DNA of 11,765 bases from Bdellovibrionia bacterium (GTDB lineage: Bacteria > Bdellovibrionota > UBA1018), in the NCBI GenBank assembly GCA_045805065.1, contig JBJMMA010000023.1, positions 1 to 11,765 of the forward strand, given 5' to 3'. This document shows, in pieces, positions 1 to 11,765 of the stretch. Each line of letters starts with the position of its first letter. Within the stretch, counting starts at the first letter, position 1. The position numbers and the translations under genes are program-made. Under the pieces are notes generated by a model. That model had not been told where the DNA came from, did not search any database, and saw only the letters and a program-made list of their open reading frames with translations.

Positions 1-362
1 AGGGCTGCACGGATTCCAACCAGATGGGAGTATCCATGGTCATGTCCGCCGCCAACGATTACCGATAGACCGGTACTCTGATGAGCCTGAGAAATGAGGT
101 CAGAGGCTAAATCGTGATTCTGAGCCACGTTCGATCCCAATCCACCGAGATCGCCCACGTCTTTCAGGCTGCTTTGAACGGCGCCTTGGCCTTTGAGACG
201 GGTAAACACCCTTCTGAAAGCGAGCGGCCCCATGGCGGCACCTAGCCTTCCCCCGACGTTCATCACGCCTTGGTGGTCAGGAATCCCAATAAGACTCCAT
301 TTGGATGTCGCTGATTGATTGAATCCTTTTGATTTTCGGTTAGAGTTACTTAGAGTTCTCAC
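1..362 (-). CDS. hutG: Formimidoylglutamase (arginase/ureohydrolase family), 5' part; runs off the window edge
   Basis: Manual minus-strand translation: ...KWSLIGIPDHQGVMNVGGRLGAAMGPLAFRRVF...LKDVGDL...SVIVGGGHDHGYSHLVGIRAA. This contains the HutG-type 'GVxxNxGRxGAxxGP'-like, 'DxGD' and 'GGGH(D/E)' motifs. The start is uncertain; the nearest in-frame start upstream of the conserved block is GTG at 362-360. Confidence 0.82.
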   Translation of the reverse strand, partial: MRTLSNSNRKSKGFNQSATSKWSLIGIPDHQGVMNVGGRLGAAMGPLAFRRVFTRLKGQGAVQSSLKDVGDLGGLGSNVAQNHDLASDLISQAHQSTGLSVIVGGGHDHGYSHLVGIRAA

Positions 363-374
363 GGTTAATACATT

Positions 375-1940
375 ATGGATCAATTCGAAGAAAAAAAGTG
401 GTTTGTTTTTCTGGGCGATCATCACGAAGGTCCATTTTCAATGGCCGAGATGCTTTCCAAGGTTGAGCAAAAGGTTGTCACCCCATCGAGCTATGTTTGG
501 GCTGAGGGAATGACCGATTGGAAGCTCATGAAAGAGATCTCAGCTTTTGAAGGACTTGAAAAAAAGCCCGTGGCTTCAGGGAACAAAAGTGAACCTTCAA
601 ATGCCCCAAGCTCAAAGAGTAATGACGAGAGAAAAGAGCCAAGTGGCGCTCTCGATCTGGGTGCATTAAAAGCCGTGTCGCTTCCCTTGGATATGACTCC
701 GCTTAAAAAAGCGGAGCCTCCTGTGAACACCGCGCACGTTGAGAAATCCTGGAAGCGCCGCCGATTGATCCGCAGGACCCTTAAAACTGCAGCTGGACTT
801 GCCGTGGTGGGCGGAGTTGGAGCGGCCTATCAATCGGGTCTGTTGAACTCTTACATCGACACCGCCAAGGTCAGTGAAAAAGTGCAGGAAGTCAGCGGCG
901 CTGTCATGGAGCAGGCTCGCCCGCAGATGCTTTCTCTTGCTGAGAAGTACCCTGTGCTGAACAAGGTCATTTCACCTATCCCACATCTTAAAGATGTGAG
1001 CGCAGAAGATTATGAAAGGCTTCGAGCTGCAGCAAGCGAGCATCTGGACAAAGGTCCAAGTGTTGCCGTTGCTCAGTCCAACGAAGATCCTGCTCACCCG
1101 GTTTTTTATGTGAGCACGAACCTGCCGGATGGCGCCAAGTTTGATGTTTACCTCGAAGGCAAGAGCGACACTCTGGTTGGAAAGATTCATGCTTCCGCCA
1201 AGGTCAGCGTGGATGTGCAAAAGAATCTTGGAAAAACCGCTCCATTGGTTCTTCCGCAGAACGCAGCTCTTCCAATGGGCGAGTATCAGGTTTTTGCAAC
1301 CGAGAGCGATGGTCAGCCTGAAGCCATCACTTCGATCCTGAAGTCGCTTCCACCGCTGAACGCCGCCAAGACGGATCGCTTGCCAGCAGGCCTGAAGCTT
1401 CTGGCCCGCAGAACCTACTTCCTCGGTGGCGCAAAGGATGAAGCCTACAATCAAAAGCTTCGTGATTATCGCACCCAGCTTCAGCAAAAGGCTCGCATTG
1501 AGATCGCAGACCTGAAAGATCTAGGCTCTGTGTTTGAGAAGCAGATGCAGGCAACGATTCATCAGTTCAAGGCCATCCACAAAGGACGCGGAATTACCGC
1601 GGCCAAGAAAAAGGCCTGGTCGAATTTTCATTCGGAATGGATGAAAAACGAAATTGCCTGGCTGGACCGTTTCTCAAAGCTCACACCAGATGCCTTGCGG
1701 GATGACTATGTCTACGCTGAGCAATATGAACTTGCTCGACAAGCGGGGCAGGAGCTTCAGAAGCTTCACGATTTGCAGAACGATTACTTTGAGAATCGCC
1801 TGGACGAGCGCGGACTTGATATCCAGCTTGGAACGGCAACATCCGTGATGGAAAGCGCGTTTCTGACTTTTAAAACTAAAACCGAGCAGGCGGAGAAGGC
1901 TTCAACCAATCCTCCGAATCTGTCGGGAGGGGCGACATGA
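375..1940 (+). CDS. GYF_2 (DUF4339) domain single-pass membrane protein with a large helical extracytoplasmic region
   Basis: N-terminus WFVFLGDHHEGPFSMAEM...YVWAEGMTDWKLMKEI fits GYF_2 (W..GPF/S..VW..GM.DW). It is followed by a Ser/Pro/Lys linker, a basic patch KRRRLIRR and a hydrophobic segment AAGLAVVGGVGAAY; 521 aa. Confidence 0.8.
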   Translation: MDQFEEKKWFVFLGDHHEGPFSMAEMLSKVEQKVVTPSSYVWAEGMTDWKLMKEISAFEGLEKKPVASGNKSEPSNAPSSKSNDERKEPSGALDLGALKAVSLPLDMTPLKKAEPPVNTAHVEKSWKRRRLIRRTLKTAAGLAVVGGVGAAYQSGLLNSYIDTAKVSEKVQEVSGAVMEQARPQMLSLAEKYPVLNKVISPIPHLKDVSAEDYERLRAAASEHLDKGPSVAVAQSNEDPAHPVFYVSTNLPDGAKFDVYLEGKSDTLVGKIHASAKVSVDVQKNLGKTAPLVLPQNAALPMGEYQVFATESDGQPEAITSILKSLPPLNAAKTDRLPAGLKLLARRTYFLGGAKDEAYNQKLRDYRTQLQQKARIEIADLKDLGSVFEKQMQATIHQFKAIHKGRGITAAKKKAWSNFHSEWMKNEIAWLDRFSKLTPDALRDDYVYAEQYELARQAGQELQKLHDLQNDYFENRLDERGLDIQLGTATSVMESAFLTFKTKTEQAEKASTNPPNLSGGAT

Positions 1941-2350
1941 GCAAATCGACCAAGGCAGGACAGCAATCTGGAGCCGAACGCAGAAAATCCAAGCGGATGG
2001 ACATCCTGGATACCTTCTCACTTTTCGTAGTCGTGCCTGCCAAGGGCCCGATGCGTTTAAAAGTGCACGATATCAGCGACGCGGGAATCGGCTTTAACCT
2101 GGATATCGAGGAAGAGCAGGGCGCTTCAAGCTTTGAAGCCAAGGTTGGCGATTCGTTCGAGGTTCATCTTTACCTGAACCAATCCCTCTATCTGCCATTC
2201 TCCGTTTCGGTGCGCCGAATTGTTGACACTGAGGGAGTTCGCCGAATCGGCGCTGAATTCCAAGGCAAAGGCTCAAAGGGCCAGGTCGCTCTGACTTCCT
2301 TTGTGCACATGCTGGACGCTCTTGGCGAAGCAGCACGGATCGAAGGCTGA
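1937..2350 (+). CDS. Stand-alone PilZ domain protein (c-di-GMP receptor)
   Basis: RxxxR (ERRKSKR), DxSxxG (DISDAG) and terminal 'IGAEF' strand. ATGA overlap with the upstream gene; GGAGG upstream of the ATG. Confidence 0.88.
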   Translation: MSKSTKAGQQSGAERRKSKRMDILDTFSLFVVVPAKGPMRLKVHDISDAGIGFNLDIEEEQGASSFEAKVGDSFEVHLYLNQSLYLPFSVSVRRIVDTEGVRRIGAEFQGKGSKGQVALTSFVHMLDALGEAARIEG

Positions 2351-2383
2351 AACTTTTCAGTTAGCCGGCTGCGAAATCTGGCC

Positions 2384-2410
2384 TAAAGGTCCCCAACTTG
2401 CTTCCGATAA
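2384..2410 (+). promoter_or_regulatory. sigma28 (FliA)-type promoter for the second PilZ gene
   Basis: TAAA (2384-2387)-N15-TCCGATAA (2403-2410) versus consensus TAAA-N15-GCCGATAA: 11/12 matches with exact spacing. Intergenic, followed by GGAGG (2418-2422) and ATG 2430. Confidence 0.82.
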
Positions 2411-2429
2411 GACCCTTGGAGGAATTGAT

Positions 2430-2933
2430 ATGCCCCAAGGATCGGGAAATTTTGGTAAACGTTCTAATCAAAGCGGTGACAATGGTACGCCGCGCGTCGT
2501 CGACTTCAACCAAGTCCGTACGCAAAAACTCGAAGAAAAGCGCCGGACTACCGAGCGCATCTTCTTTAAACACCTTTTGAATGTCTATTCGGTAGTGAAT
2601 ACCGATCAGATGATGCCCATCGAGTTCATCGATGTGAGCGATGACGGTTGCTCGTTTCAGGTTCCATACGATCCTGAAAAGCCGTGGCCGACCACCACGA
2701 GCGATATCCCGCTTCGTGTGTATTTCAGCCAGGACACTTATCTTGAGATCCGCGTGACGGTTCAGAATTCTCGTCCATCGATCGAGAACAACCGCCGTTA
2801 CGTCCGCTACGGATGCACCGTGGACACGACCACGGCATCGTACGCAGCTTACCAGCAATTTGTCCGCTTCCTGAAGCTCTACTCAGAGCACGCCCATAAA
2901 GACATGGGCGACGTCAGTATCTTCTATCTTTAA
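2430..2933 (+). CDS. PilZ domain protein with N-terminal extension (167 aa)
   Basis: RxxxR (KRRTTER), DxSxxG (DVSDDG), 'YGCTV' strand. Start moved from 2301 to ATG 2430 because of the GGAGG RBS and the promoter just upstream. Confidence 0.82.
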   Translation: MPQGSGNFGKRSNQSGDNGTPRVVDFNQVRTQKLEEKRRTTERIFFKHLLNVYSVVNTDQMMPIEFIDVSDDGCSFQVPYDPEKPWPTTTSDIPLRVYFSQDTYLEIRVTVQNSRPSIENNRRYVRYGCTVDTTTASYAAYQQFVRFLKLYSEHAHKDMGDVSIFYL

Positions 2934-3206
2934 TTAAAGCTGTCCGGTTTCGCCGGCAACGGGTACGTTCACTTGAACGTTGCTAGTTGTCGGCGTATCC
3001 GCCGGAATCTCCTGAATATCATCATCATCTTCTTCTTCGATGACATCAGTTTTACCGGTTGAGGTCTTGCCAGCAGCAGGATGACTGCGAGCCGTGAGGG
3101 CGGCCAGAGCCGCGGCTTGAGACGAATATTGCTGGGTTTCCGCAGCATGTGCTGCAGAGATCGCCAAAACAAAGGTGCAAATCGAGACGAGAGTAAGGCT
3201 CTTCAT
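2934..3206 (-). CDS. Small secreted, acidic, low-complexity protein (90 aa)
   Basis: MKSLTLVSICTFVLAISAAHA-AET is a typical Sec signal peptide with an AxA site; acidic run EEEDDDD; AAAGGGA upstream of ATG 3206 (ORF-track start is TTG 3230). Confidence 0.65.
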   Translation of the reverse strand: MKSLTLVSICTFVLAISAAHAAETQQYSSQAAALAALTARSHPAAGKTSTGKTDVIEEEDDDDIQEIPADTPTTSNVQVNVPVAGETGQL

Positions 3207-3265
3207 GAAGAAAGCGATCCCTTTCTTCAATCGATGTTAACATGTGAAATGAAAAATGGAATCTG

Positions 3266-3296
3266 AAAAAGAGGCGGGTTTTAGCCCGCTTTTTTT
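3266..3296. terminator. Intrinsic terminator-like hairpin, stronger on the + strand, overlapping the stop of the 76-aa gene
   Basis: AAAAAGAG-GCGGG-TTTTAG-CCCGC-TTTTTTT: 7 T after the stem on +, CTCTTTTT after the stem on -. Confidence 0.55.
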
Positions 3297-3511
3297 CTAG
3301 TAATTGTTGAAGATTTTCCAGTGACTGGAGATTGGGATTCGAGCCATCGTGTCAGAAGCGACGCGGCTTTGGCGGGATCTTTTTCGACGAGTTTCGTAAT
3401 TTCATCGCGCAAACGAAAAAGCTCCGCCTTCGCGTCCTCGGGTTTTCCCGAAGCGTCAGGCCGGAGCTTCTTCACGTTATTATTGTTACTGTTGTTCTTG
3501 AAGCCTTTCAT
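3281..3511 (-). CDS. 76-aa protein carrying a FliF C-terminal (FliG-binding)-like helix-Pro-helix motif
   Basis: Residues 34-58 LRDEITKLVEKDPAKAASLLTRWLE resemble the FliF tail pattern (I/L)xx(L/M)xxx(D/N)PxxxAx(L/V)(L/I)xxW(L/M). ATGA overlap (3508-3511) with the upstream 70-aa gene. Confidence 0.7.
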   Translation of the reverse strand: MKGFKNNSNNNNVKKLRPDASGKPEDAKAELFRLRDEITKLVEKDPAKAASLLTRWLESQSPVTGKSSTITRKKAG

Positions 3512-3720
3512 GAATTTCCAATGCTTGGGCCCTGCAGAGCAGGTGCGGCACCTTGCTCAAGCTGCAGGCTATCAATTTCGTCCTGGGAGATGGAGCCAAC
3601 AAACACTTCTTCATCGATCAACGAGAATGCGAACCAGCGATTACCCATCTTTTGATAAAGGACTTCGACGGTTTGATCGTTGGACTTACGGATTTCGTTT
3701 TTCTTAGAGTTGTTCGCCAT
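3508..3720 (-). CDS. 70-aa hypothetical protein with a small predicted beta-sheet core
   Basis: Strong RBS GGAGG (3726-3730, minus strand), promoter upstream, protein-like core VEVLYQKMGNRWFAFSLIDEEVFVGSI, coupled to the next gene. Confidence 0.75.
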   Translation of the reverse strand: MANNSKKNEIRKSNDQTVEVLYQKMGNRWFAFSLIDEEVFVGSISQDEIDSLQLEQGAAPALQGPSIGNS

Positions 3721-3763
3721 GGCACCCTCCCTGGTTTGTTGGCTGAAAGTTGTTACATGAGAC

Positions 3764-3790
3764 CTATCGGCGCCCCGCGCCTTTCCTAAA
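3764..3790 (-). promoter_or_regulatory. sigma28 (FliA)-type promoter for the two-microprotein operon
   Basis: Minus strand TTTA (3790-3787)-N15-GCCGATAG (3771-3764). The -10 box is 7/8 to GCCGATAA, the -35 box is weaker, and the spacing is exact; it lies 43 nt upstream of ATG 3720. Confidence 0.72.
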
Positions 3791-3849
3791 CGAGAAAGTT
3801 TTGCCCTGTTTTGTCATGCTAGCCCGCCGTTTCAAAATGGGCGCAGCGC

Positions 3850-3878
3850 TGGACGGGAAGGGTTCGCGCGGATAAGAT
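3850..3878 (+). promoter_or_regulatory. Putative sigma70 promoter giving a leaderless transcript
   Basis: TGGACG (3850-3855)-N17-TAAGAT (3873-3878)-N6-ATG 3885; no clear Shine-Dalgarno. Confidence 0.45.
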
Positions 3879-3884
3879 GGCGAC

Positions 3885-4628
3885 ATGAAAAGTTTATCTC
3901 TCATGGCTTTCGCTCTGATCCTCTCAGTTCATACGGCCAGCCCGGCAAATGCTGCCGAGTCAAAACCAAAGTACGGACCGATGGCAAACGTGCTGTCGCA
4001 ATCGCATGATTATTTCAAAAGCGCACCCGCTCCGGACTTCTGGGCGCTCATCCCGTATTATGCCGCTCAAATGGACGAGTCAGCTTGCTCGGTTGCCTCG
4101 GTGACCATGATCACGAACGGCGCACGCGTCGGAAAAAAGCTGACCGCGGACGATGAGCTGGTCACTCAGCAAGCAATCGCCGAAAAAGTTCTTCATAAAG
4201 CCTGGCACAAGGGAATGATGAAAAAGGCGATGGGTTATTCAACAAACCTGGATGAGCTGGGCGAGATTGCGCGCGAAGCATTCGAGAAGTACGGAATCCA
4301 CGTCAAATCGGTTGAGGTCGTTCACGCTGATGCGATCGATGAGAAGACCAAGGCAAAGCTTCATGAGGCATTGGTTGAGAACGAGAAGTCAGCGCACGAT
4401 TTCATTCTCCTCAACTTCAATCAGAAGGTTTTCACCGGTGATGCTGAAGTAGGTCACATCTCTCCGATTGGCGCCTATGATGAGAAGAACCACAAAGTCC
4501 TCGTCATGGATCCTGATCGCAAATGGTATGAGCCTTACTGGGTCTCCGAAGAAACTCTTCTTATGGGAATGGCGACCAAGGACTCATCGACACAGCGCAA
4601 CCGCGGCTTTGTCTGGATCAAGTTCTAA
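3885..4628 (+). CDS. Phytochelatin synthase family (papain-fold) protein with signal peptide
   Basis: Oxyanion Gln and catalytic Cys in QMDESACSVAS, His in GHISPIGAYD, Asp in VLVMDPDR, 'PYWVS' and terminal 'RGFV'; N-terminal Sec signal ending ANA-AES. Confidence 0.88.
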   Translation: MKSLSLMAFALILSVHTASPANAAESKPKYGPMANVLSQSHDYFKSAPAPDFWALIPYYAAQMDESACSVASVTMITNGARVGKKLTADDELVTQQAIAEKVLHKAWHKGMMKKAMGYSTNLDELGEIAREAFEKYGIHVKSVEVVHADAIDEKTKAKLHEALVENEKSAHDFILLNFNQKVFTGDAEVGHISPIGAYDEKNHKVLVMDPDRKWYEPYWVSEETLLMGMATKDSSTQRNRGFVWIKF

Positions 4629-4658
4629 GCTTGCTCTGATCTGCTGCCGTTATTGCCA

Positions 4659-5105
4659 CTATTGAACGATGATCGTACCGTTGATCGTGTGATTGTAAAC
4701 GTCCTCGAACTCATAGCTTCCAGGATCTGTCAGAGTCACGACGTGAGCGCGGACAGTGTTCAATGAACCTGGATCACTGAGCGGGCTTGTTGGAAATGTC
4801 GGCTGAGCCGTCGACTGAATCTGATGAAACTCCGTTGTATTGAGGTACCAGAAAATAATCTGGGTCCCTGCGCTAACGGTGCATGTGAGGCTCACGGGTG
4901 GCTGCACAATGCCAGGCGCTTCCTGGCAGCCGCAGAGGTTTTGAATAAAATTGTCATAAATCACAAGCTGAGCTTTGGTCGGAGTGCAATTCCCTGAGGC
5001 GCTGCCGCTGGTACCCGACACGCTGGCCTGCTCTTCACAAGAAAGCGTAGTTAAACCAAGGGTTACGGCCAAAATCAGGGGGGTTAAAATCCTAAAGCTT
5101 CGCAT
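4659..5105 (-). CDS. Lipoprotein with cupredoxin-like fold
   Basis: Signal peptide II with lipobox (TLS-C); 'TVSAGTQIIF', 'HQIQS' and C-terminal 'PGSYEF...GTIIV' follow the cupredoxin strand pattern. Confidence 0.62.
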   Translation of the reverse strand: MRSFRILTPLILAVTLGLTTLSCEEQASVSGTSGSASGNCTPTKAQLVIYDNFIQNLCGCQEAPGIVQPPVSLTCTVSAGTQIIFWYLNTTEFHQIQSTAQPTFPTSPLSDPGSLNTVRAHVVTLTDPGSYEFEDVYNHTINGTIIVQ

Positions 5106-5216
5106 CTGCTTGTAATCTAACCCGAATGCTTACCCGCTTGTACTTAAATTTTTTGCTCAACAGGGCCTTGCGCTGTGCGGCTATTTCATGTATTTCATGG
5201 TCCACCTTTCACGAGT

Positions 5217-5294
5217 GGACCCGTAGCTCAGTTGGATTAGAGCGTCAGACTACGGATCTGAAGGTCCCAGGTTCGAACCCTGGCGGGTCCGCCA
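5217..5294 (+). tRNA. tRNA-Arg (anticodon ACG)
   Basis: Acceptor stem GGACCCG/CGGGTCC + G-CCA; D arm TAGCTCAGTTGGATTAGAGC; anticodon arm TCAGA-CTACGGA-TCTGA; T arm CCAGG-TTCGAAC-CCTGG. Confidence 0.97.
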
Positions 5295-5312
5295 TTTCAA
5301 GGTTAAGCATCA

Positions 5313-5358
5313 AAAATAAAAAAGCCGGCACGCGCAAGCAAGCCGGCTTTTTTATTTT
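5313..5358. terminator. Bidirectional intrinsic terminator between the tRNA and the M14 peptidase gene
   Basis: Perfect 17-bp inverted repeat AAAATAAAAAAGCCGGC (5313-5329) / GCCGGCTTTTTTATTTT (5342-5358) with a 12-nt loop and U-tracts on both strands. Confidence 0.88.
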
Positions 5359-5370
5359 CTACAGGTCCAC

Positions 5371-6264
5371 CTAAGTTCTACCCAAGATAAAATCCAGGCC
5401 GCCTTTAATCGCCATCATCTGGGCATTTCTGCAGATCGCATCGTTCGCCTTAGGGCTGTCAGGATAAACTTCAGTAGTCGTCGTATACTTCGCTCTCGAG
5501 ATCCCAGCGCAAAGCGAGAGTTCCTTCAATGAATAATTGATGACGCCTTCTTGCTCGATCTCAACACCAATGATTTTCCCCTCAGCGTCAGGAGGTGCAA
5601 TGTGGGTCACCTTCCTCACCGAATCGATGACTGCCTTCTGAAATTCGGGCACTGGATTTTCAGTATCCCCCACAGCGTAAAAGCCGTCCGGGATTTCACT
5701 CCACGGGTCCTCTTCGGTCCCATCTCGCAACGCTTTCTCCGGACGAAAAATGGAATTGTCCGTATCCGTAGTTTCATGCAGGTCAAAGTGCACATAGATA
5801 TCGCTGAGAAAGGACGATACAGCGCTCAGAAACAGACGGCACTCCTCGGCTGGACTGTTCAGAATGAAACTGCGGTTTGGATCGATCGCTTGAGGGTTCC
5901 AGCGATTGATCGTCTCATAAGCCCAAGGGCTGATAGCGGGAGCGCAAATGAAGTTGAATGCCTCACTGTAATGCGAGGCCTCCTGCTCCATGAATGCAAG
6001 CGCCCCATGGACGCCGCTGGTTTCATAACCGTGAACGCCTCCCGTAATGAGGACCGTTTTCTTATTGGGAGAGAAGGTTTCTGATTGAACCAGGAAAAGC
6101 GGGTATTTTTCTGGGTTAAGAGAGAGTGCGCCGTACTGCGTGACTTTAAATTTAGCGCCAAGCTTCTGAATGGGAGTCACTACTTCTTCAAGGTAGGAGC
6201 GCTGGATCTTTTGTTTGTTAAACCATTTTCTTTTGTCGTCATCGGACCAAGGCCTTCGGTTCAT
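5371..6264 (-). CDS. M14 family zinc metallocarboxypeptidase / succinylglutamate desuccinylase-like protein
   Basis: HxxE in GGVHGYETSG, 'NRWN..AIDPNRSF', third ligand in DLHET, catalytic Glu in TTTEVYP. Start placed at ATG 6264 (MNRRPW...) rather than TTG 6342. Confidence 0.87.
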   Translation of the reverse strand: MNRRPWSDDDKRKWFNKQKIQRSYLEEVVTPIQKLGAKFKVTQYGALSLNPEKYPLFLVQSETFSPNKKTVLITGGVHGYETSGVHGALAFMEQEASHYSEAFNFICAPAISPWAYETINRWNPQAIDPNRSFILNSPAEECRLFLSAVSSFLSDIYVHFDLHETTDTDNSIFRPEKALRDGTEEDPWSEIPDGFYAVGDTENPVPEFQKAVIDSVRKVTHIAPPDAEGKIIGVEIEQEGVINYSLKELSLCAGISRAKYTTTTEVYPDSPKANDAICRNAQMMAIKGGLDFILGRT

Positions 6265-6439
6265 GGGAATGATGTTACACCGGTTTTTCGATACAAGCAG
6301 GTCTAAACTCGTCCAAGCGGCATACTCAGCAGCCGGTTTCAAGAGTTGAGGTGAGGTACGTGATTTGCTCGGCTCAAAATATTACAGAATAAATGAAGCA
6401 ATCTAAAACGCAGCTGCCCGTGCTGCGCAGGAGGAAGGG

Positions 6440-7222
6440 ATGAAGCTTAATCAGAAAAGGCTCGCAAAACGAAAGATTGCCGTCTTAGTTGCCGACGGAT
6501 TCGAGATGGCTGAATATATGGTCCCGGTGAATGCCCTTCGGATGGCGGGAGCTGACGTCACTGTCGTTTCGCTCCGGTCCGGCCGGATCCGAGGCGTCAA
6601 CTTGCATGAGCCTGCCCATAAGATCCGTGCTGATCTCACAGTCGATCAAGCGAATGAAGCGGACTACGATGCCTTGTTCGTCCCTGGTGGATTCATCAAT
6701 CCCGATCTGTTGCGACAATCGGCTCAGGTTCGCGGTTTTGTGAGCGATTTTGAGCGCTCCAAAAAGCCAATCGCGACGCTTTGTCACGGTCCATGGGTGC
6801 TCGCATCGGCCGGGCTTTCGAGCGGACGCACTCTGACCTCCTGGCCTGGCACGCGTGACGACATGGTCAACGCAGGTGCGACGTGGTTGGATCAGGCCGT
6901 TGTGCGCGACGGAAATTGGGTGACCAGCCGCGGGCCTCAGGACTTCGCGGATTTCGTTCCCGCCATGATCGATTTGTTCACTCGATCGACTTTCGCACCA
7001 GAAAACCTCGGTGATAATGAGAGAGCGGTATCGTCGCCACAGCGAGACGAACCCCCTAGCGTCGTGTTGTCGGCCTTCAAGTGGATGCCGCGGCCTTCGC
7101 TCCGAGGATTTGCGCTCGGTCTGTTGGTTGGAGGATTGACCATTGCTAGCCGCCGCGTTGCTTCGCGACAGGCGCAGTCAAGAAACGAGGCGCAGCGGGA
7201 CGACTTCGCGATCGCGGTGTGA
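6440..7222 (+). CDS. PfpI/DJ-1 family type 1 glutamine amidotransferase-like protein with C-terminal hydrophobic extension
   Basis: DGFExxE, YDALFVPGG..NPD.LR, nucleophile elbow LCHGPW, VVRDGNWVTSRGPQD; RBS GGAGGA upstream. Confidence 0.92.
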   Translation: MKLNQKRLAKRKIAVLVADGFEMAEYMVPVNALRMAGADVTVVSLRSGRIRGVNLHEPAHKIRADLTVDQANEADYDALFVPGGFINPDLLRQSAQVRGFVSDFERSKKPIATLCHGPWVLASAGLSSGRTLTSWPGTRDDMVNAGATWLDQAVVRDGNWVTSRGPQDFADFVPAMIDLFTRSTFAPENLGDNERAVSSPQRDEPPSVVLSAFKWMPRPSLRGFALGLLVGGLTIASRRVASRQAQSRNEAQRDDFAIAV

Positions 7223-7345
7223 CGCTCGCAGGTAAAGTAAGTGGTGATTGTTTTTTTTAAGTCGCTCATTCAGTGATCAAGAAATTTTTCGTATTCCACT
7301 GCATAGCAGCGACGAGATGGCCTCTGGCCTGCACTGCTTTTAAGG

Positions 7346-8575
7346 GTGGCCAATCGACTAGCCGATGTTGCTCGGCGTTTCAGCGAAAATAAAGAAACAA
7401 TCCTCCAGGAGTGGGAACGCGCTGTATTAGAGGAGATACCCGAAGCAAGGGATAAGGGAAAAAAAGCGATCAGGAACAGCATTCCCGCGCTCTTGGAGAA
7501 AATCGCGCGCACGCTTTCGAAAGAGTCTCCTAAAGATACCGCTGATTTTGAGTCCGAGCTTTCAATGGCGAAGGAGCACGGTCAGCAGAGAGCAAGGTTC
7601 ACGGATTACTCGATGGAGCAGGTGATTCACGAATACCAGCTTCTGAGAAAAGTCATATTACGAGTCCTGGAGAAAAAAAAGCCTCTCAATTCTCAAGATC
7701 GTGATGTGATCATTGACGCCGTCGCGCTTGGCGAGCGGATTGCCGCATCTGAGTTCCATAACCTTCATCTCAAATCAATGCGCGATTTAAGTGAACGCAC
7801 CGAACAGAGGGATGTCGCTCAAAAGCAGAGGGATGATTCCAGAATCGAAGTACGCGATCTCATCTCAGAACGAGGAATGCGAGAGAGCTTTGTTTCGGGC
7901 TTGGCGCATGACTTGAGGACGCCGATCACCGCAGCTCGAATGAACCTGGAGCTTCTAATTCGAAGAAGAAATGATGTGGGGGCCTTGGAGCTCCATACAG
8001 GTCGAGCCTTGGGAGAGCTTTCGCGTCTTGAGGGCATGATTCAGGATCTTCTGGATGCAAATCGAATCCGAGCTGGCGTGAAGCTGCCCATCAAGCTGGC
8101 TGGCTTTGATCTCGTCGAAGAAGTTCAACATACTCTTGATTCTTTGGCTGCGGTGCACGGGGATCGGTTCGAACTTGAGGCAGAGGAAAGGGTTGTGGGC
8201 TATTGGGATCGAAAAGGAATCAGGCGTATCGTTGAAAATCTCTGCATCAATGCCATCAAGTATGGCGATAAAACCACTGAGGTCACCGTTTGCATAAAAC
8301 CAAACTGGGACGAAAGAAGGGTGGAGCTCTCTATCCATAACTGGGGACCTGTCATCGATAGTGAATCCCAGAAGACGGTTTTCGAGCAGTTCCGAAGAGC
8401 GAGCTTGAAAGACATCCATAGCATTCACGGATGGGGAATCGGTCTGGCCGTAGTTCGTGGAATGGCGGAATCACACGGCGGTCATGTTGAAGTTCAAAGC
8501 AGTCCGGAGGAAGGGACTACTTTCAAGCTCCTCCTGCCAATCGACGCTCGAGAGCGGTTGCAGCGCGCGAGTTAA
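7346..8575 (+). CDS. Soluble sensor histidine kinase (N-terminal RsbRD_N-like helical domain, HisKA, HATPase_c)
   Basis: H-box AHDLRTPI, N-box NLCINAIKYG, G1-like HNWGPVI, F-box VFEQF, G2 GWGIGLAVV..HGG. N-terminal ILQEW...EHGQQRA...EYQLLR pattern; no TM segment. GTG start is uncertain. Confidence 0.9.
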   Translation: MANRLADVARRFSENKETILQEWERAVLEEIPEARDKGKKAIRNSIPALLEKIARTLSKESPKDTADFESELSMAKEHGQQRARFTDYSMEQVIHEYQLLRKVILRVLEKKKPLNSQDRDVIIDAVALGERIAASEFHNLHLKSMRDLSERTEQRDVAQKQRDDSRIEVRDLISERGMRESFVSGLAHDLRTPITAARMNLELLIRRRNDVGALELHTGRALGELSRLEGMIQDLLDANRIRAGVKLPIKLAGFDLVEEVQHTLDSLAAVHGDRFELEAEERVVGYWDRKGIRRIVENLCINAIKYGDKTTEVTVCIKPNWDERRVELSIHNWGPVIDSESQKTVFEQFRRASLKDIHSIHGWGIGLAVVRGMAESHGGHVEVQSSPEEGTTFKLLLPIDARERLQRAS

Positions 8576-8632
8576 GTCGCAAACCCCAAACCTACTAAAC
8601 TATTTGGGATTTCCTAACGGCCAGCGCCAGGA

Positions 8633-8677
8633 TTGACATTTCCTGATAGTTCTATTATTCTAGAAATATGGAAATGT
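8633..8677 (+). promoter_or_regulatory. ars operon sigma70 promoter with overlapping palindromic operator
   Basis: TTGACA (8633-8638)-N17-TATTCT (8656-8661)-N6-ATG 8668. Inverted repeats ACATTTCC (8636-8643)/GGAAATGT (8670-8677) and inner TTCTA (8650-8654)/TAGAA (8661-8665). Confidence 0.72.
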
Positions 8678-9000
8678 ATGAAGCCACTGAAGCTTTCTCT
8701 TCGCTCTCTCAGGAAACCCGTCTCAAGGTTTTCAAGCTTCTGATTGAGTACGGCAGAGAAGGCGCCGTTCCAGGAAAACTGGCTGAGGAGCTCAAGATTC
8801 CGGACAATACGCTGTCTTTTCATCTCTCGCATATGAACAAGGCAGGGCTGATTACTTCAAAGAAAAACGGCCGCTCCATCACTTATTACGCGAACACGGA
8901 TCTCATCGAAGACCTGATCGATTACCTGCAGGCAAACTGTTGTGCTCGAGAAACCAAGTCCAAAACCAAGAGCAAATGCTCTCCGGAAAGGAAGTGCTAG
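8668..9000 (+). CDS. arsR: ArsR/SmtB family repressor with C-terminal Cys ligands
   Basis: LSQETRLKVFKLL, HTH 'NTLSFHL..M.KAGLI...GRSITY', C-terminal NCC plus two further Cys; first gene of the ars cluster. Confidence 0.92.
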   Translation: MEMYEATEAFSSLSQETRLKVFKLLIEYGREGAVPGKLAEELKIPDNTLSFHLSHMNKAGLITSKKNGRSITYYANTDLIEDLIDYLQANCCARETKSKTKSKCSPERKC

Positions 9001-9001
9001 T

Positions 9002-9439
9002 ATGAAACGCTTTCATATTCATGTCGGAGTTAAGAACCTGGAGAAATCGGTCCAATTCTATTCCACTCTCTTTGGACAAAAGCCAGCGAAGCTCAAGTCA
9101 GACTATGCAAAGTGGATGCTTGAGGACCCCAAACTCAACTTTGCCATCTCCACTCGCACGAACGAAGAAGGTGTTGACCACCTGGGCATTCAAGTGGACG
9201 CAGACTCCGAACTTGCCGAAATTACAGAACGCCTGAAAAACGCAGACCTTGGTGTTTACGATGAAGGTGAGACAACCTGCTGCTATGCGGAGTCCAAAAA
9301 GGCCTGGGTACAGGACCCTTCAGGCGTGGCCTGGGAAGCGTATCGCACAATGGCAGACGCTGAACTCTTCAAAGGCATGGCAGATGAAGACAAATCAGAC
9401 TGCTGTGTGCCTGATGGCTCTGAACAAAACTGCTGCTGA
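9002..9439 (+). CDS. arsI: ArsI/CadI family VOC metalloenzyme (putative C-As lyase)
   Basis: MKRFHIH, YAKWMLEDP.LNFAIS, DHLGIQV, vicinal Cys in TTCCYA, KAWVQDP.G..WE. Start moved to ATG 9002, 1 nt after the arsR stop. Confidence 0.85.
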   Translation: MKRFHIHVGVKNLEKSVQFYSTLFGQKPAKLKSDYAKWMLEDPKLNFAISTRTNEEGVDHLGIQVDADSELAEITERLKNADLGVYDEGETTCCYAESKKAWVQDPSGVAWEAYRTMADAELFKGMADEDKSDCCVPDGSEQNCC

Positions 9440-9451
9440 TCGGATCATAAA

Positions 9452-10531
9452 ATGGAGAACAGCCTTGTCAGCTCAGTCGTTTGTCCGCGTAGGGAACTGT
9501 CGTTCCTGGATCGCTACCTGACGTTATGGATCTTTCTCGCCATGGCGGGGGGCGTATTGCTGGGTTACATCGCACCAGGCCTGGTCCCAGCACTGAACCA
9601 GATGAGCGTTGGCACCACTTCGATCCCAATCGCAGTGGGCCTGATCCTCATGATGTATCCGCCTCTGGCGAAAGTGAAATACGAGGATCTGGGTCAAGTC
9701 TTCCGCAATAAGCGTGTCTTGGCTCTCTCTCTTCTCCAGAACTGGATCATGGGTCCAGTTCTGATGTTTGGATTAGCCGTGCTCCTGTTGCGCGACCGTC
9801 CTGAGTACATGATCGGGCTCATCCTGATCGGGCTTGCTCGCTGTATCGCCATGGTCATCGTGTGGAATGAGCTTGCCGAAGGAAATAGCGAATACTGCGC
9901 AGGCCTGGTTGCCTTCAACTCCATCTTTCAGATTCTATTTTTCCCTCTTTATGCTTGGTTCTTCATGACCAAGCTTCCCGCTTGGCTTGGGCTTCAAGGA
10001 TCTGAAGTCAATATCAGTATGGGAGAGATCGCGCGGTCAGTGTTTGTGTATCTAGGGATCCCATTTTTTGCAGGATTTCTTACGCGCCTGATTCTACGGA
10101 AGGCAAAAGGCGATGCATGGTATCGTGAGAACTTTCTTCCAAAGATCAGCCCCATTACGCTCACTGCGTTGCTTTTTACGATTGTTTTGATGTTCTCCAT
10201 TAAGGGCGAACAAATCGTACAATTGCCTTTGGATGTTTTGAGAATCACCCTTCCTTTGGTGATCTACTTTGGCGTGATGTTCTTGCTCTCTTTCTTCCTG
10301 AGCAAGAAGGCTGGAGCGGATTACCCTCAAGCAGCAACGCTTTCTTTCACCGCAGCCTCGAACAACTTTGAGCTTGCGATTGCAGTCGCGATTGCAACGT
10401 TTGGTATTCACCACGGCGCAGCTTTTGCCGCCGTGATTGGTCCACTGGTTGAGGTCCCAGCACTCATTGCTCTGGTGCAACTGGCCTTGAGATTCAAAGC
10501 TAAGTTCTTTGACAGGAAATCTCTCGCGTGA
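9452..10531 (+). CDS. acr3: Acr3 family arsenite efflux transporter
   Basis: [55 protein letters not shown]; multiple hydrophobic helices. Confidence 0.96.
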
Positions 10532-10971
10532 AAAAGATCCTCTTCATGTGCGTTGCCAATTCCGCTCGTAGTCAGTTAGCAGAAGGGCTCGCACGTCACT
10601 TGTTCGGTGATCAGATTGAGGTACAGAGTGCTGGTTCGAAGCCTACGAAGCCAAATCCCTTTGCCATCCAAGTCATGAAAGAAATCGGAATTGATATCTC
10701 ACAGCATTACTCAAAGACGTATGACGAACTTCCTCCTCGGTTCCTGGTGGACTTGGACTGCGTCATTACTCTTTGCGCCGAAGAGATATGTCCCGTGATC
10801 GTTTCTAAAGCAAAAAAGATCCATTGGCCGTTCCCTGATCCCGCAGGCCATGGCGGTTGCGATGAGCTGCAGCTTCAGCGCTTTCGAGAAACACGTGATG
10901 CGATCACAGCAAAGCTGAAAGCTTCTATTTTAGTGAATGGGGAAGCGCAGAGCGGCTATTCCAACGGGTGA
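10528..10971 (+). CDS. arsC: Arsenate reductase, LMW-PTP (thioredoxin-type) fold
   Basis: P-loop [38 protein letters not shown] overlap with acr3. Confidence 0.92.
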
Positions 10972-11600
10972 TCGTAGCCCTCAAGATCCTTCAGCTGACG
11001 TATGCCGTTCTTCAGAACAGCACGCAGGGTTTCCGAGATCGTTGCGGCCTCGAGGATTTTCTGGTCCTCGTACACGCCAAAACCAAACATGGTGGCGATG
11101 GCATAGGAGAGAGCAAGAGGTTCGTCGTCCAGCGCGGCTAGAGCGCCAAGATCGACCGGAAGTTCAGCTTTTACGAGCTCAAGCAGTTTGCGCACGAGCC
11201 CAAGAAGGGGATCCAAAAAGACTCCGGTTGAACCTGAGACATCATCCACGGGAGCCCCATGGGCTCGCACTGCTCCTGACAAGAAGGGCTCCTTATGAAT
11301 GATCCCTTCGAGAAAAATCCGTTCGACTCCCACGATTTTTACCCGAAAGCCCTCTTCGACTTCAGAGATACTCTCGATAATCCCGCGCGTACCTACACGA
11401 TACAATTGCGAAGTGTCGCTGATCCGCTCGGTCGAATAGTCGCGCTGAGCAAAAACGGCAATCGACTGATCGTCCCTTTGCAATGCGACTCTTGAGGCTT
11501 CCACTGTTTCAGCGCGACCGATGATGACAGACACGGCTAATTCAGGGAACAAAACCGAGCCTCGGAGTGGAAGAATTGGCATCAGCAGAATGTCATTCAT
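10956..11600 (-). CDS. Isolated Lon protease N-terminal substrate-binding domain protein (possibly a truncated lon)
   Basis: MPILPLRGSVLFP...IGR, VFAQRD, LYRVGTRGII, VKIVGVERI, QKILEA..I.E.L match the Lon N-domain; no Walker A or Ser-Lys protease domain follows. Confidence 0.8.
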   Translation of the reverse strand: MNDILLMPILPLRGSVLFPELAVSVIIGRAETVEASRVALQRDDQSIAVFAQRDYSTERISDTSQLYRVGTRGIIESISEVEEGFRVKIVGVERIFLEGIIHKEPFLSGAVRAHGAPVDDVSGSTGVFLDPLLGLVRKLLELVKAELPVDLGALAALDDEPLALSYAIATMFGFGVYEDQKILEAATISETLRAVLKNGIRQLKDLEGYDHPLE

Positions 11601-11765
11601 GCGTATTCCATTGCTGCACTTAAAATACCGCTCTAAGCAGCTTGAATGGGATAATTGCCAAAGCGAGCATCCAATTACTGGCGCCTGAAGTGCAGAGACA
11701 TAAGGCTCAAATGGTTCTCAGAGCAGGTGCATTAACGAATTCGAGTGGCATTTTAACTCCAGAGC

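Follow-up and report, generated by a model that had tools for sequence, protein, structure and literature searches.

Results

Gene content of the locus

We analysed a stretch of 11,765 nucleotides (nt) from a Bdellovibrionia bacterium (assembly GCA_045805065.1, contig JBJMMA010000023.1, positions 1 to 11,765; referred to here as the window), which is one contig of a 4.2-Mb genome that is 94% complete. Between positions 2,384 and 3,790 two sigma28-type promoters face each other across a gene for a PilZ protein (PilZ2) and an operon of two small genes, encoding proteins of 70 and 76 amino acids (aa). The original prediction had described this block as a compact motility-switch locus. Our main result is that, judged by sequence, the 76-aa open reading frame (ORF) is a stand-alone homologue of the C-terminal FliG-binding tail of FliF, the protein of the membrane/supramembrane (MS) ring. 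The features of the locus are listed in Table 1. The block is less compact than had been supposed, as a 90-aa gene and a hairpin, the latter reaching into the final codons of the 76-aa gene, lie inside it and had been overlooked.

Table 1 Features at the locus, with those of the microprotein operon given first.
Feature	Position	Strand	Evidence or remark
76-aa stand-alone protein homologous to the FliG-binding C-terminal tail of FliF	3281-3511	-	Conserved core residues 24-59 (3442-3335), helix-Pro-helix
70-aa conserved protein, first operon gene	3508-3720	-	ATGA overlap with 76-aa gene
Sigma28-type promoter of the 70+76-aa operon, TTTAG-N14-GCCGATAG	3764-3790	-	Predicted start site ~3757
Quasi-palindromic element of GG-C-AAAA-CTTT-C-TC type, candidate regulator site	3791-3806	-	Abuts -35 box
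Sigma28-type promoter of PilZ2, CTAAAG ... TCCGATAA	2383-2410	+	Predicted start site ~2417, from comparison with the mapped Bd0760 site
PilZ2, 167 aa, Bd0760-family putative receptor of cyclic di-GMP (c-di-GMP)	2430-2933	+	PF07238 6.7e-5
PilZ1, 137 aa, paralogue of PilZ2	1937-2350	+	PF07238 1.3e-7
GYF_2-domain protein of 521 aa with one likely membrane helix	375-1940	+	Pfam PF14237 6e-13
90-aa acidic protein, signal-peptide-like start	2934-3206	-	ORF; no Pfam match above cut-off
Hairpin flanked by T-runs, likely terminator in both directions	3274-3289	both	Program-listed on -; + strand T-run at 3290-3296

For comparison we used metagenome-assembled genomes labelled Bdellovibrionota, Oligoflexia or Bacteriovoracaceae, from which 68 related loci were retrieved through alignment of the 70-aa protein. 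These 68 loci are kin, and motif counts across them are therefore not independent. The labels f1, f2, f7, f13, f15, f16, f18, f19, f21, f22, f23, f24 and f31 denote families within the phylum genome set.

Homology of the 76-aa protein to the FliF tail

A single-sequence search of 61 genomes with the 76-aa protein returned short ORFs together with the ends of frames of 560-580 aa, which are FliF. When a profile made from 35 FliF tails and excluding all microproteins was run against the 80,476 six-frame ORFs of the genome, FliF ranked first (2e-22) and the 76-aa ORF second (3.6e-4), with the next match at 0.31. A profile of 54 microproteins had exactly two matches in the genome, the 76-aa protein itself (1.6e-13) and the FliF tail (5.1e-10). 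Among the matches listed, this profile matched at least twice in 24/26 genomes of family f1 and 51/57 of family f22, and the only two f1 genomes with a single match (G205 and G253) were the two which lack the 70-aa gene. An hhalign comparison aligned 42 columns with FliF 508-549 at a probability of 96%.

We compared individual positions between 148/149 microproteins and 31 FliF tails, using a Lys and a Trp as the anchor, so that the 100% conservation of these two residues holds by construction. The conserved Pro was found in 98% of microproteins and 100% of FliF tails, and two alanines in 92% and 91% of microproteins compared to 100% and 96% of FliF tails. Hydrophobic residues at positions -14, -10, -7, -6, +4, +5 and +9 were kept in 80-99% of microproteins. 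Microproteins and FliF tails thus have E(-18), K(-11), P(-2), both alanines and a hydrophobic face in common, and the 76-aa family retains P-x-K-A-A-x-I-L-x-x-W. The AlphaFold2 model consists of helices at residues 24-44 and 46-59, broken at Asp45-Pro46, and resembles the two FliF helices in structures of the FliF C-terminus (FliF-C) bound to FliG's N-terminal domain (FliG-N) (PMC8956890). The 76-aa protein had no match in Pfam or NCBIfam, and has no membrane helices or YscJ_FliF ring domains. A full-length, intact FliF of 561 aa with both domains, followed by FliG, is encoded elsewhere in the genome, and FliG was found in 61/61 relatives.

Several observations weigh against this assignment. 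The likeness is one of a short amphipathic helix pair, and the sequence matches to FliF in the PDB were weak (E 0.34-2.3) and stood among unrelated matches. Foldseek returned no match for the 76-aa model, and the FliF tail of H. pylori (5WUJ_A) ranked only 32nd, with a Z of 2.7 and a root-mean-square deviation of 3.3 over all of its 37 residues. The microproteins do not have, in that form, the D-P-x-K-x-E-G-E-M stretch which is invariant before the helices of the local FliF tails, and f22 members often carry Met in place of the Trp.

The 76-aa gene is real: its family comprises 402 homologous clusters with E no higher than 0.001 (of the best 150, all but one measure 40-103 aa), and its divergence from a same-genus orthologue is biased towards the third codon position, with 15, 8 and 34 changes at positions 1, 2 and 3. 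The C-termini of the microproteins are AA or AG in 90/150 homologues, compared to 158/3,598 of all called proteins and 54/502 of those with basic tails. AA and AG C-termini mark ClpXP substrates, and these small-residue ends suggest that the protein may be short-lived. FliF tails also finish in small residues, and f22 microprotein copies finish mostly in Lys. The AA/AG tail could be a by-product of the terminator, which overlaps the gene here, but the codons vary and several loci have a strong hairpin after the stop.

Since FliF-C binds and co-folds with FliG-N, as described in two studies (PMC8956890, PMC6445934), we infer FliG binding for the 76-aa peptide too, and consider binding of some kind to be probable. 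This agrees with the original prediction, in which the block was said to include a putative FliG-binding peptide.

The nearest named clusters in the ESM Atlas were 'FliF' proteins of 69-72 aa (0.89), mostly from Thermodesulfobacteriota. They are a lead only, and may be stand-alone FliF tails from outside the phylum, or fragments. When shorter proteins were searched with the FliF tail, only 8 candidates were scored, mostly FliF fragments.

Sigma28-type promoters of PilZ2 and the operon

The two sigma28-type promoters had been placed exactly by the original prediction. The plus strand reads TAAA-N15-TCCGATAA at 2384-2410, followed by GGAGG at 2418-2422 and ATG at 2430, and the minus strand reads TTTA-N15-GCCGATAG at 3790-3764, followed by GGAGG at 3730-3726 and ATG at 3720. 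Both sites are intergenic and upstream of a gene, with rightly spaced -35 (TAAA/TTAAG) and -10 ((G)CCGATAA) elements. It should be noted that the minus site agrees with TAAA at only 2/4 positions; TTTAG-N14-GCCGATAG is a better fit and is near the consensus given for Bdellovibrio, TTAAG-N16-CCGATA (PMC3627812).

A single match to the strict sigma28 pattern is at chance level, with 73 matches in the genome versus ~81 expected from shuffles. Sense upstream intergenic zones, which were defined from simple ORF calls made for this analysis, held 18 of the 73, including both window sites, where 2.5 were expected. What settles the reality of the motifs is not the single match but their conserved position in relatives. 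At most 110 nt upstream of the gene, the strict motif was present in 41/68 loci for the 70-aa gene and in 43/60 for PilZ2 (shuffles 1.4% and 0.9%), the PilZ2 counts covering the 60 loci where sufficient DNA was available upstream. A relaxed pattern, defined with the sites already known, was present in 57/68 and 57/60 (shuffles 5.0% and 4.4%). In the comparison genes the relaxed motif was found at 0/33 GYF genes, 6/64 76-aa genes and 14/54 PilZ1 genes. The sigma28-type motif persists in distant families. The sigma28-type motifs before the 70-aa gene and PilZ2 are therefore real and conserved. Flagellin-domain matches in the genome numbered eight, seven of them strong, and 2/7 flagellin genes carry the same type of motif within 300 nt.

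The opposite explanation, that the motifs are chance and the small ORFs noise or a remnant of fliF, could appeal to the strict motif being no commoner genome-wide than in shuffles. It is largely refuted by the conservation of the motif in 57/68 and 57/60 loci, by the presence, in distant families, of intact ORFs that have ribosome sites, and by the homologous clusters and third-position bias described above, and we regard it as highly improbable.

From the motif we infer that both promoters depend on FliA. FliA-type control alone does not imply a role in motility, because many FliA-type sites of B. bacteriovorus, where they occur at 92/140 mapped attack-phase promoters, precede non-flagellar genes (PMC3627812).

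A quasi-palindromic element upstream of the operon promoter

The quasi-palindrome together with the sigma28 motif was found before the 70-aa gene in 50/68 loci and before PilZ2 in 31/60 (shuffles 0.2%). The source genome has the quasi-palindrome at the 70-aa promoter and not at the PilZ2 promoter. Some loci with divergent genes (L067, L086 and L094) have one quasi-palindrome between the two -35 boxes. A pattern search for the element gave 7 sites in 6/26 genomes and none in the source genome, the pattern being too strict.

Genome-wide there were only two strong promoters of this type, that of the 70-aa gene and one other. The best-scoring palindrome-plus-sigma28 promoter of the genome precedes a gene for a 79-aa protein with four Cys residues, resembling a zinc ribbon (G000:C68:16355-16698, +; L272), and the homologue of this gene in genome G005 has the same promoter type. 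The 79-aa gene and the palindrome-type promoters possibly form a small sub-regulon with a putative activator of its own. In another genome a palindrome-type promoter (L275; G007:C16:87581-87623) is situated ~2 kb downstream of fliG, ahead of a start resembling FliJ; the region upstream of fliJ in the source genome held no clean copy.

Two genes of the FliA family exceeded the cut-off in the source genome. The second, a FliA/WhiG-family sigma factor (L104:3745-4578, -; G000:C139), lies away from the flagellar cluster and has counterparts such that 5/41 genomes carry two FliA genes. We considered this second FliA as the reader of the palindrome-type promoters and dropped the idea, since just 5/41 genomes have it.

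The 70-aa partner and the spread of the operon

The 70-aa protein belongs to a family with 861 homologues, and its model has three strands and a helix (predicted local distance difference test score 72). It had no significant match in Pfam, PDB sequences or Foldseek; the best VIA match had a Z of 3.6 and Atlas features gave 0.76. A fold of PC4/PUR type was considered and is not claimed, its Z being just 2.1-2.4.

The 70-aa gene was found in 129/251 phylum genomes, including 24/26 in family f1, 57/57 in f22, 13/14 in f16 and 6/6 in f13, and was not found in f18 (0/29), f21 (0/29) or f23 (0/13). Among the 68 loci, 64 have the peptide gene after the 70-aa gene, 62 have PilZ2 nearby, 55 have the GYF gene and 54 have PilZ1. 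The 70-aa and 76-aa genes often overlap by 4 or 14 nt (-4 or -14). In f22 a 76-aa-type ORF was called in 12/14 loci, and the other two were seen in frame translations. Proteins from two f22 loci have identical hypothetical proteins on record from Bacteriovorax stolpii and Halobacteriovorax sp. JY17, and the operon and its promoter reach Bacteriovorax and Halobacteriovorax. Families f15 and f19 had no match for either small gene, and one genome of each was without FliG-N. Five f21 genomes gave no match to the 70-aa protein, in a search without a positive control, and a mixed profile gave only FliF and one non-significant match.

Conservation was thus confirmed in part only. The sigma28 motifs and the operon are kept across relatives, but linkage to PilZ2 is not: in 14/14 f22 loci, and in 7/7 loci of f2 and f7 of the same order, there is no PilZ2 within ~4 kb of the operon, and PilZ2 lies elsewhere in the genomes checked. 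The convergent layout is also only one of three, as PilZ2 is convergent with the operon in 44 of the 62 loci that have it, divergent in 13 and in tandem in 5. What is conserved as a unit is the operon of two genes and its promoter; the link to PilZ is limited to part of one order.

This distribution bears on the suggestion that the peptide was derived from, or converged on, the FliF tail and now has another partner, for example the 70-aa protein. The operon would then belong to a broad FliA attack-phase regulon and its adjacency to PilZ would reflect lineage history. The tight coupling of the 70-aa/peptide pair, which moves as a unit away from PilZ2, is what such a history would leave, and FliA sites do precede many non-flagellar genes. 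However, the residues which the peptide has retained are those in common with the FliF tail, and in f16 the 70-aa gene occurs without the peptide, and we consider this explanation unlikely.

One relative (L174; G188:C1:883687 and 893857) has two 70-aa genes with sigma28-type promoters, 10 kb apart, of which only one is followed by a FliF-tail gene. In twelve relatives (G048:C108, G020:C25, G014:C16 and nine more) there is a second, short match to FliG (frames of 141-281 aa), which covers the FliG C-terminal part only; these are FliG-C-like genes standing by themselves.

PilZ proteins and neighbouring genes

Both PilZ proteins exceed the Pfam cut-off. Relatives of PilZ1 have RxxxR in 54/54 and D/NxSxxG in 53/54 cases, and those of PilZ2 in 58/60 and 49/60. 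PilZ2 has one match each in 37/40 chosen phylum genomes, most with a sigma28-type motif except in family f18, where homologues without a clear sigma28 motif upstream were seen (L245-L248).

The DNA upstream of PilZ2 homologues in f21, f24 and f31 resembles the published promoter of Bd0760, which has a mapped FliA-type start site and a row with 13,264 and 58 in two columns of reads per kilobase per million, the sub-headings of which are not shown (PMC3627812). Searched as a pattern, the Bd0760 promoter was found in 14/121 f21 genomes, and in the 8 loci which we read it precedes a gene for a 169-aa protein, the length listed for Bd0760. The one 169-aa protein scanned is a PilZ protein and the sole match of its genome to the PilZ2 profile. 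The genes bd0760 and bd1007 are described as homologues of the YcgR brake which control attack-phase swimming (PMC11323537).

PilZ1 and PilZ2 are both best assigned to the Bd0760 family, and architecture and promoter make PilZ2 the likelier orthologue. A quick tree of 66 rows, which sampled 11 of the 68 loci, joined the Bd0760-type protein to the PilZ2 clade (Shimodaira-Hasegawa-like approximate likelihood ratio 81), with PilZ1 outside. Two points count against the choice of PilZ2: the support is only 81 and the root unsure, and the best pairwise match of the Bd0760-type protein here is PilZ1 (1.6e-17) rather than PilZ2 (7.9e-12), so that the two are not reciprocal best matches. By its family, PilZ2 is likely to be a c-di-GMP receptor and a flagellar swimming brake, in line with the motor-brake role which the original prediction had given it.

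The same prediction had coupled PilZ1 to the GYF gene and proposed that the two PilZ paralogues are regulated differently. The coupling is borne out by the ATGA overlap at 1937-1940. Different regulation holds for the source genome, where PilZ1 goes with the GYF gene, a gene whose relatives lack the motif (0/33), but 14/54 PilZ1 relatives have a motif of their own. The N-terminus of the GYF protein is weakly like the gliding protein GltJ (NCBIfam NF033761, 4e-5, far under the cut-off). The Bd1478-1483 operon, which we had considered as the orthologous cluster, was rejected as it is a gliding-type operon.

The slot between PilZ2 and the 76-aa gene holds a small protein with a signal-peptide-like start in 36/43 convergent loci, by a crude filter for hydrophobic starts. 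Many of these slot proteins share R-x-P-[AG]-[IV]-L ... P-x-G-x-x-A-x-L-Y, a motif which the 90-aa copy of the source genome does not have. On the other side of the operon, a gene for a cupredoxin-like lipoprotein (4659-5105, -) lies upstream of the 70-aa gene in 41/68 loci, and here, as in 5/68 loci, a phytochelatin-synthase-like gene (3885-4628, +) is inserted between the two. The sole Rfam match in the window was a tRNA gene at 5217-5291 (+). At 8668-10971 (+) Pfam identified genes for ArsR, a glyoxalase-like protein, an SBF-family transporter and a low-molecular-weight phosphatase, a cluster which resembles an arsenic-resistance operon.

Discussion

A possible FliG decoy

In the standard flagellar cascade, FliA comes into play late. 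FliA likely transcribes the 76-aa gene along with the 70-aa gene, and the free peptide would likely occupy the FliG N-domain in place of FliF. Being late and unanchored, it would compete with FliF for new FliG and act as a decoy which limits or loosens assembly of the rotor rings, while PilZ2 next to it would probably brake swimming in response to c-di-GMP, with timing of the same FliA type. The direction of this effect is drawn from late FliA timing and from the peptide having no membrane anchor. We favour this FliA-timed FliG decoy as a possible reading which falls a little short of probable.

The following findings tell against the decoy. The direction of effect is argued from timing, and FliA regulates the attack phase of Bdellovibrio broadly, so that its timing need not follow completion of the motor (PMC3627812). 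In family f16 the peptide gene is missing beside the 70-aa gene in 6/6 loci, and flagellated Bdellovibrio-type genomes had a convincing stand-alone tail copy in 0/5.

The same evidence of FliF-tail homology applies to a peptide which aids assembly or recycling, as a placeholder chaperone of FliG-N that keeps FliG folded until displaced by FliF, or that holds FliG from dismantled motors. FliG-N needs FliF to fold (PMC8956890), and Bdellovibrio is described as retracting its flagellum on prey entry and rebuilding it (PMC13689555). Yet a chaperone would be expected beside fliFG, whereas the peptide gene is not linked to the flagellar cluster and lies behind a promoter of late type; moreover, the Bdellovibrio-type genomes searched did not have the peptide gene. 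We therefore find a chaperone role somewhat unlikely.

We think it quite unlikely that the peptide is a structural filler which completes FliG where FliG subunits of the cytoplasmic (C) ring outnumber the FliF tails of the MS ring, and so tunes ring size or switching. The diameter of the C ring does depend on templating by the FliF C-terminus (PMC12222027), and removal of FliF-C and FliG-N alters ring size and switch bias (PMC6445934). However, the wider C ring of C. jejuni is explained by a wider MS ring at 1:1 (PMC12222027), and degron-like tails would better suit a transient protein.

Returning to the decoy, we tentatively propose a wider hypothesis, which is speculative as a whole: Bacteriovorax-like and related predators may control their motor by a FliA-timed, short-lived mimic of the FliF tail which titrates FliG off the MS ring-C ring joint. 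Such feedback would stop further basal bodies or uncouple the rotor, and the conserved upstream palindrome would mark a putative activator of a sub-regulon. If true, this mechanism would add a point of control separate from both FlhF/FlhG counting and PilZ brakes. FliF-C and FliG-N co-fold 1:1, and their joint templates the C ring (PMC12222027); a FliF-C copy that occurs free in nature would give the cell a competitor or chaperone of its own there. We found no report of a stand-alone FliF tail in the literature searched, a scope outside which most subscription papers fall.

Comparison with known systems

With the promoters and PilZ2, a circuit already known from Bdellovibrio is extended to uncultured relatives; these are the ordinary features of the locus, and the FliF-tail microprotein is the one that merits further work. 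The promoters have their -35/-10 consensus in common with the FliA attack-phase regulon of B. bacteriovorus (PMC3627812), and the FliA gene here likewise adjoins the flagellar cluster. Compared to that regulon, the promoters of the order studied here add the upstream quasi-palindrome, and there is a second FliA-like gene in some genomes (5/41), the source genome among them.

Bd0760 and PilZ2 share an N-terminal extension, their length, a C-terminal DxG tail, single-copy spread and a FliA-type promoter ~20 nt before the start. Unlike the Bd0760-type genomes, the source genome has two members of the family, PilZ1 and PilZ2, and no microprotein operon or GYF gene lies near the Bd0760-type loci (8/8 loci of f21, f24 and f31).

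The FliF-C tail in the FliF-C:FliG-N complex (PDB 5WUJ and 5TDY, as named in PMC8956890) has two helices with a Pro break, as does the 76-aa model, and the hydrophobic face and P-x-K-A-A-x-I-L-x-x-W of local FliF tails recur in the 76-aa protein. Unlike FliF-C, the 76-aa protein has its own gene at another locus with a sigma28-type promoter, in a genome where fliF is intact elsewhere; it comes without membrane helices or ring domains, and its ends are variable and rich in Lys and Pro.

Small regulators of the flagellar motor which act at or near FliG or the stator include YcgR, MotI, FlgZ and EpsE. These stop torque in a motor which has already been built, whereas a copy of the FliF tail would act at the joint where the MS ring meets the C ring.

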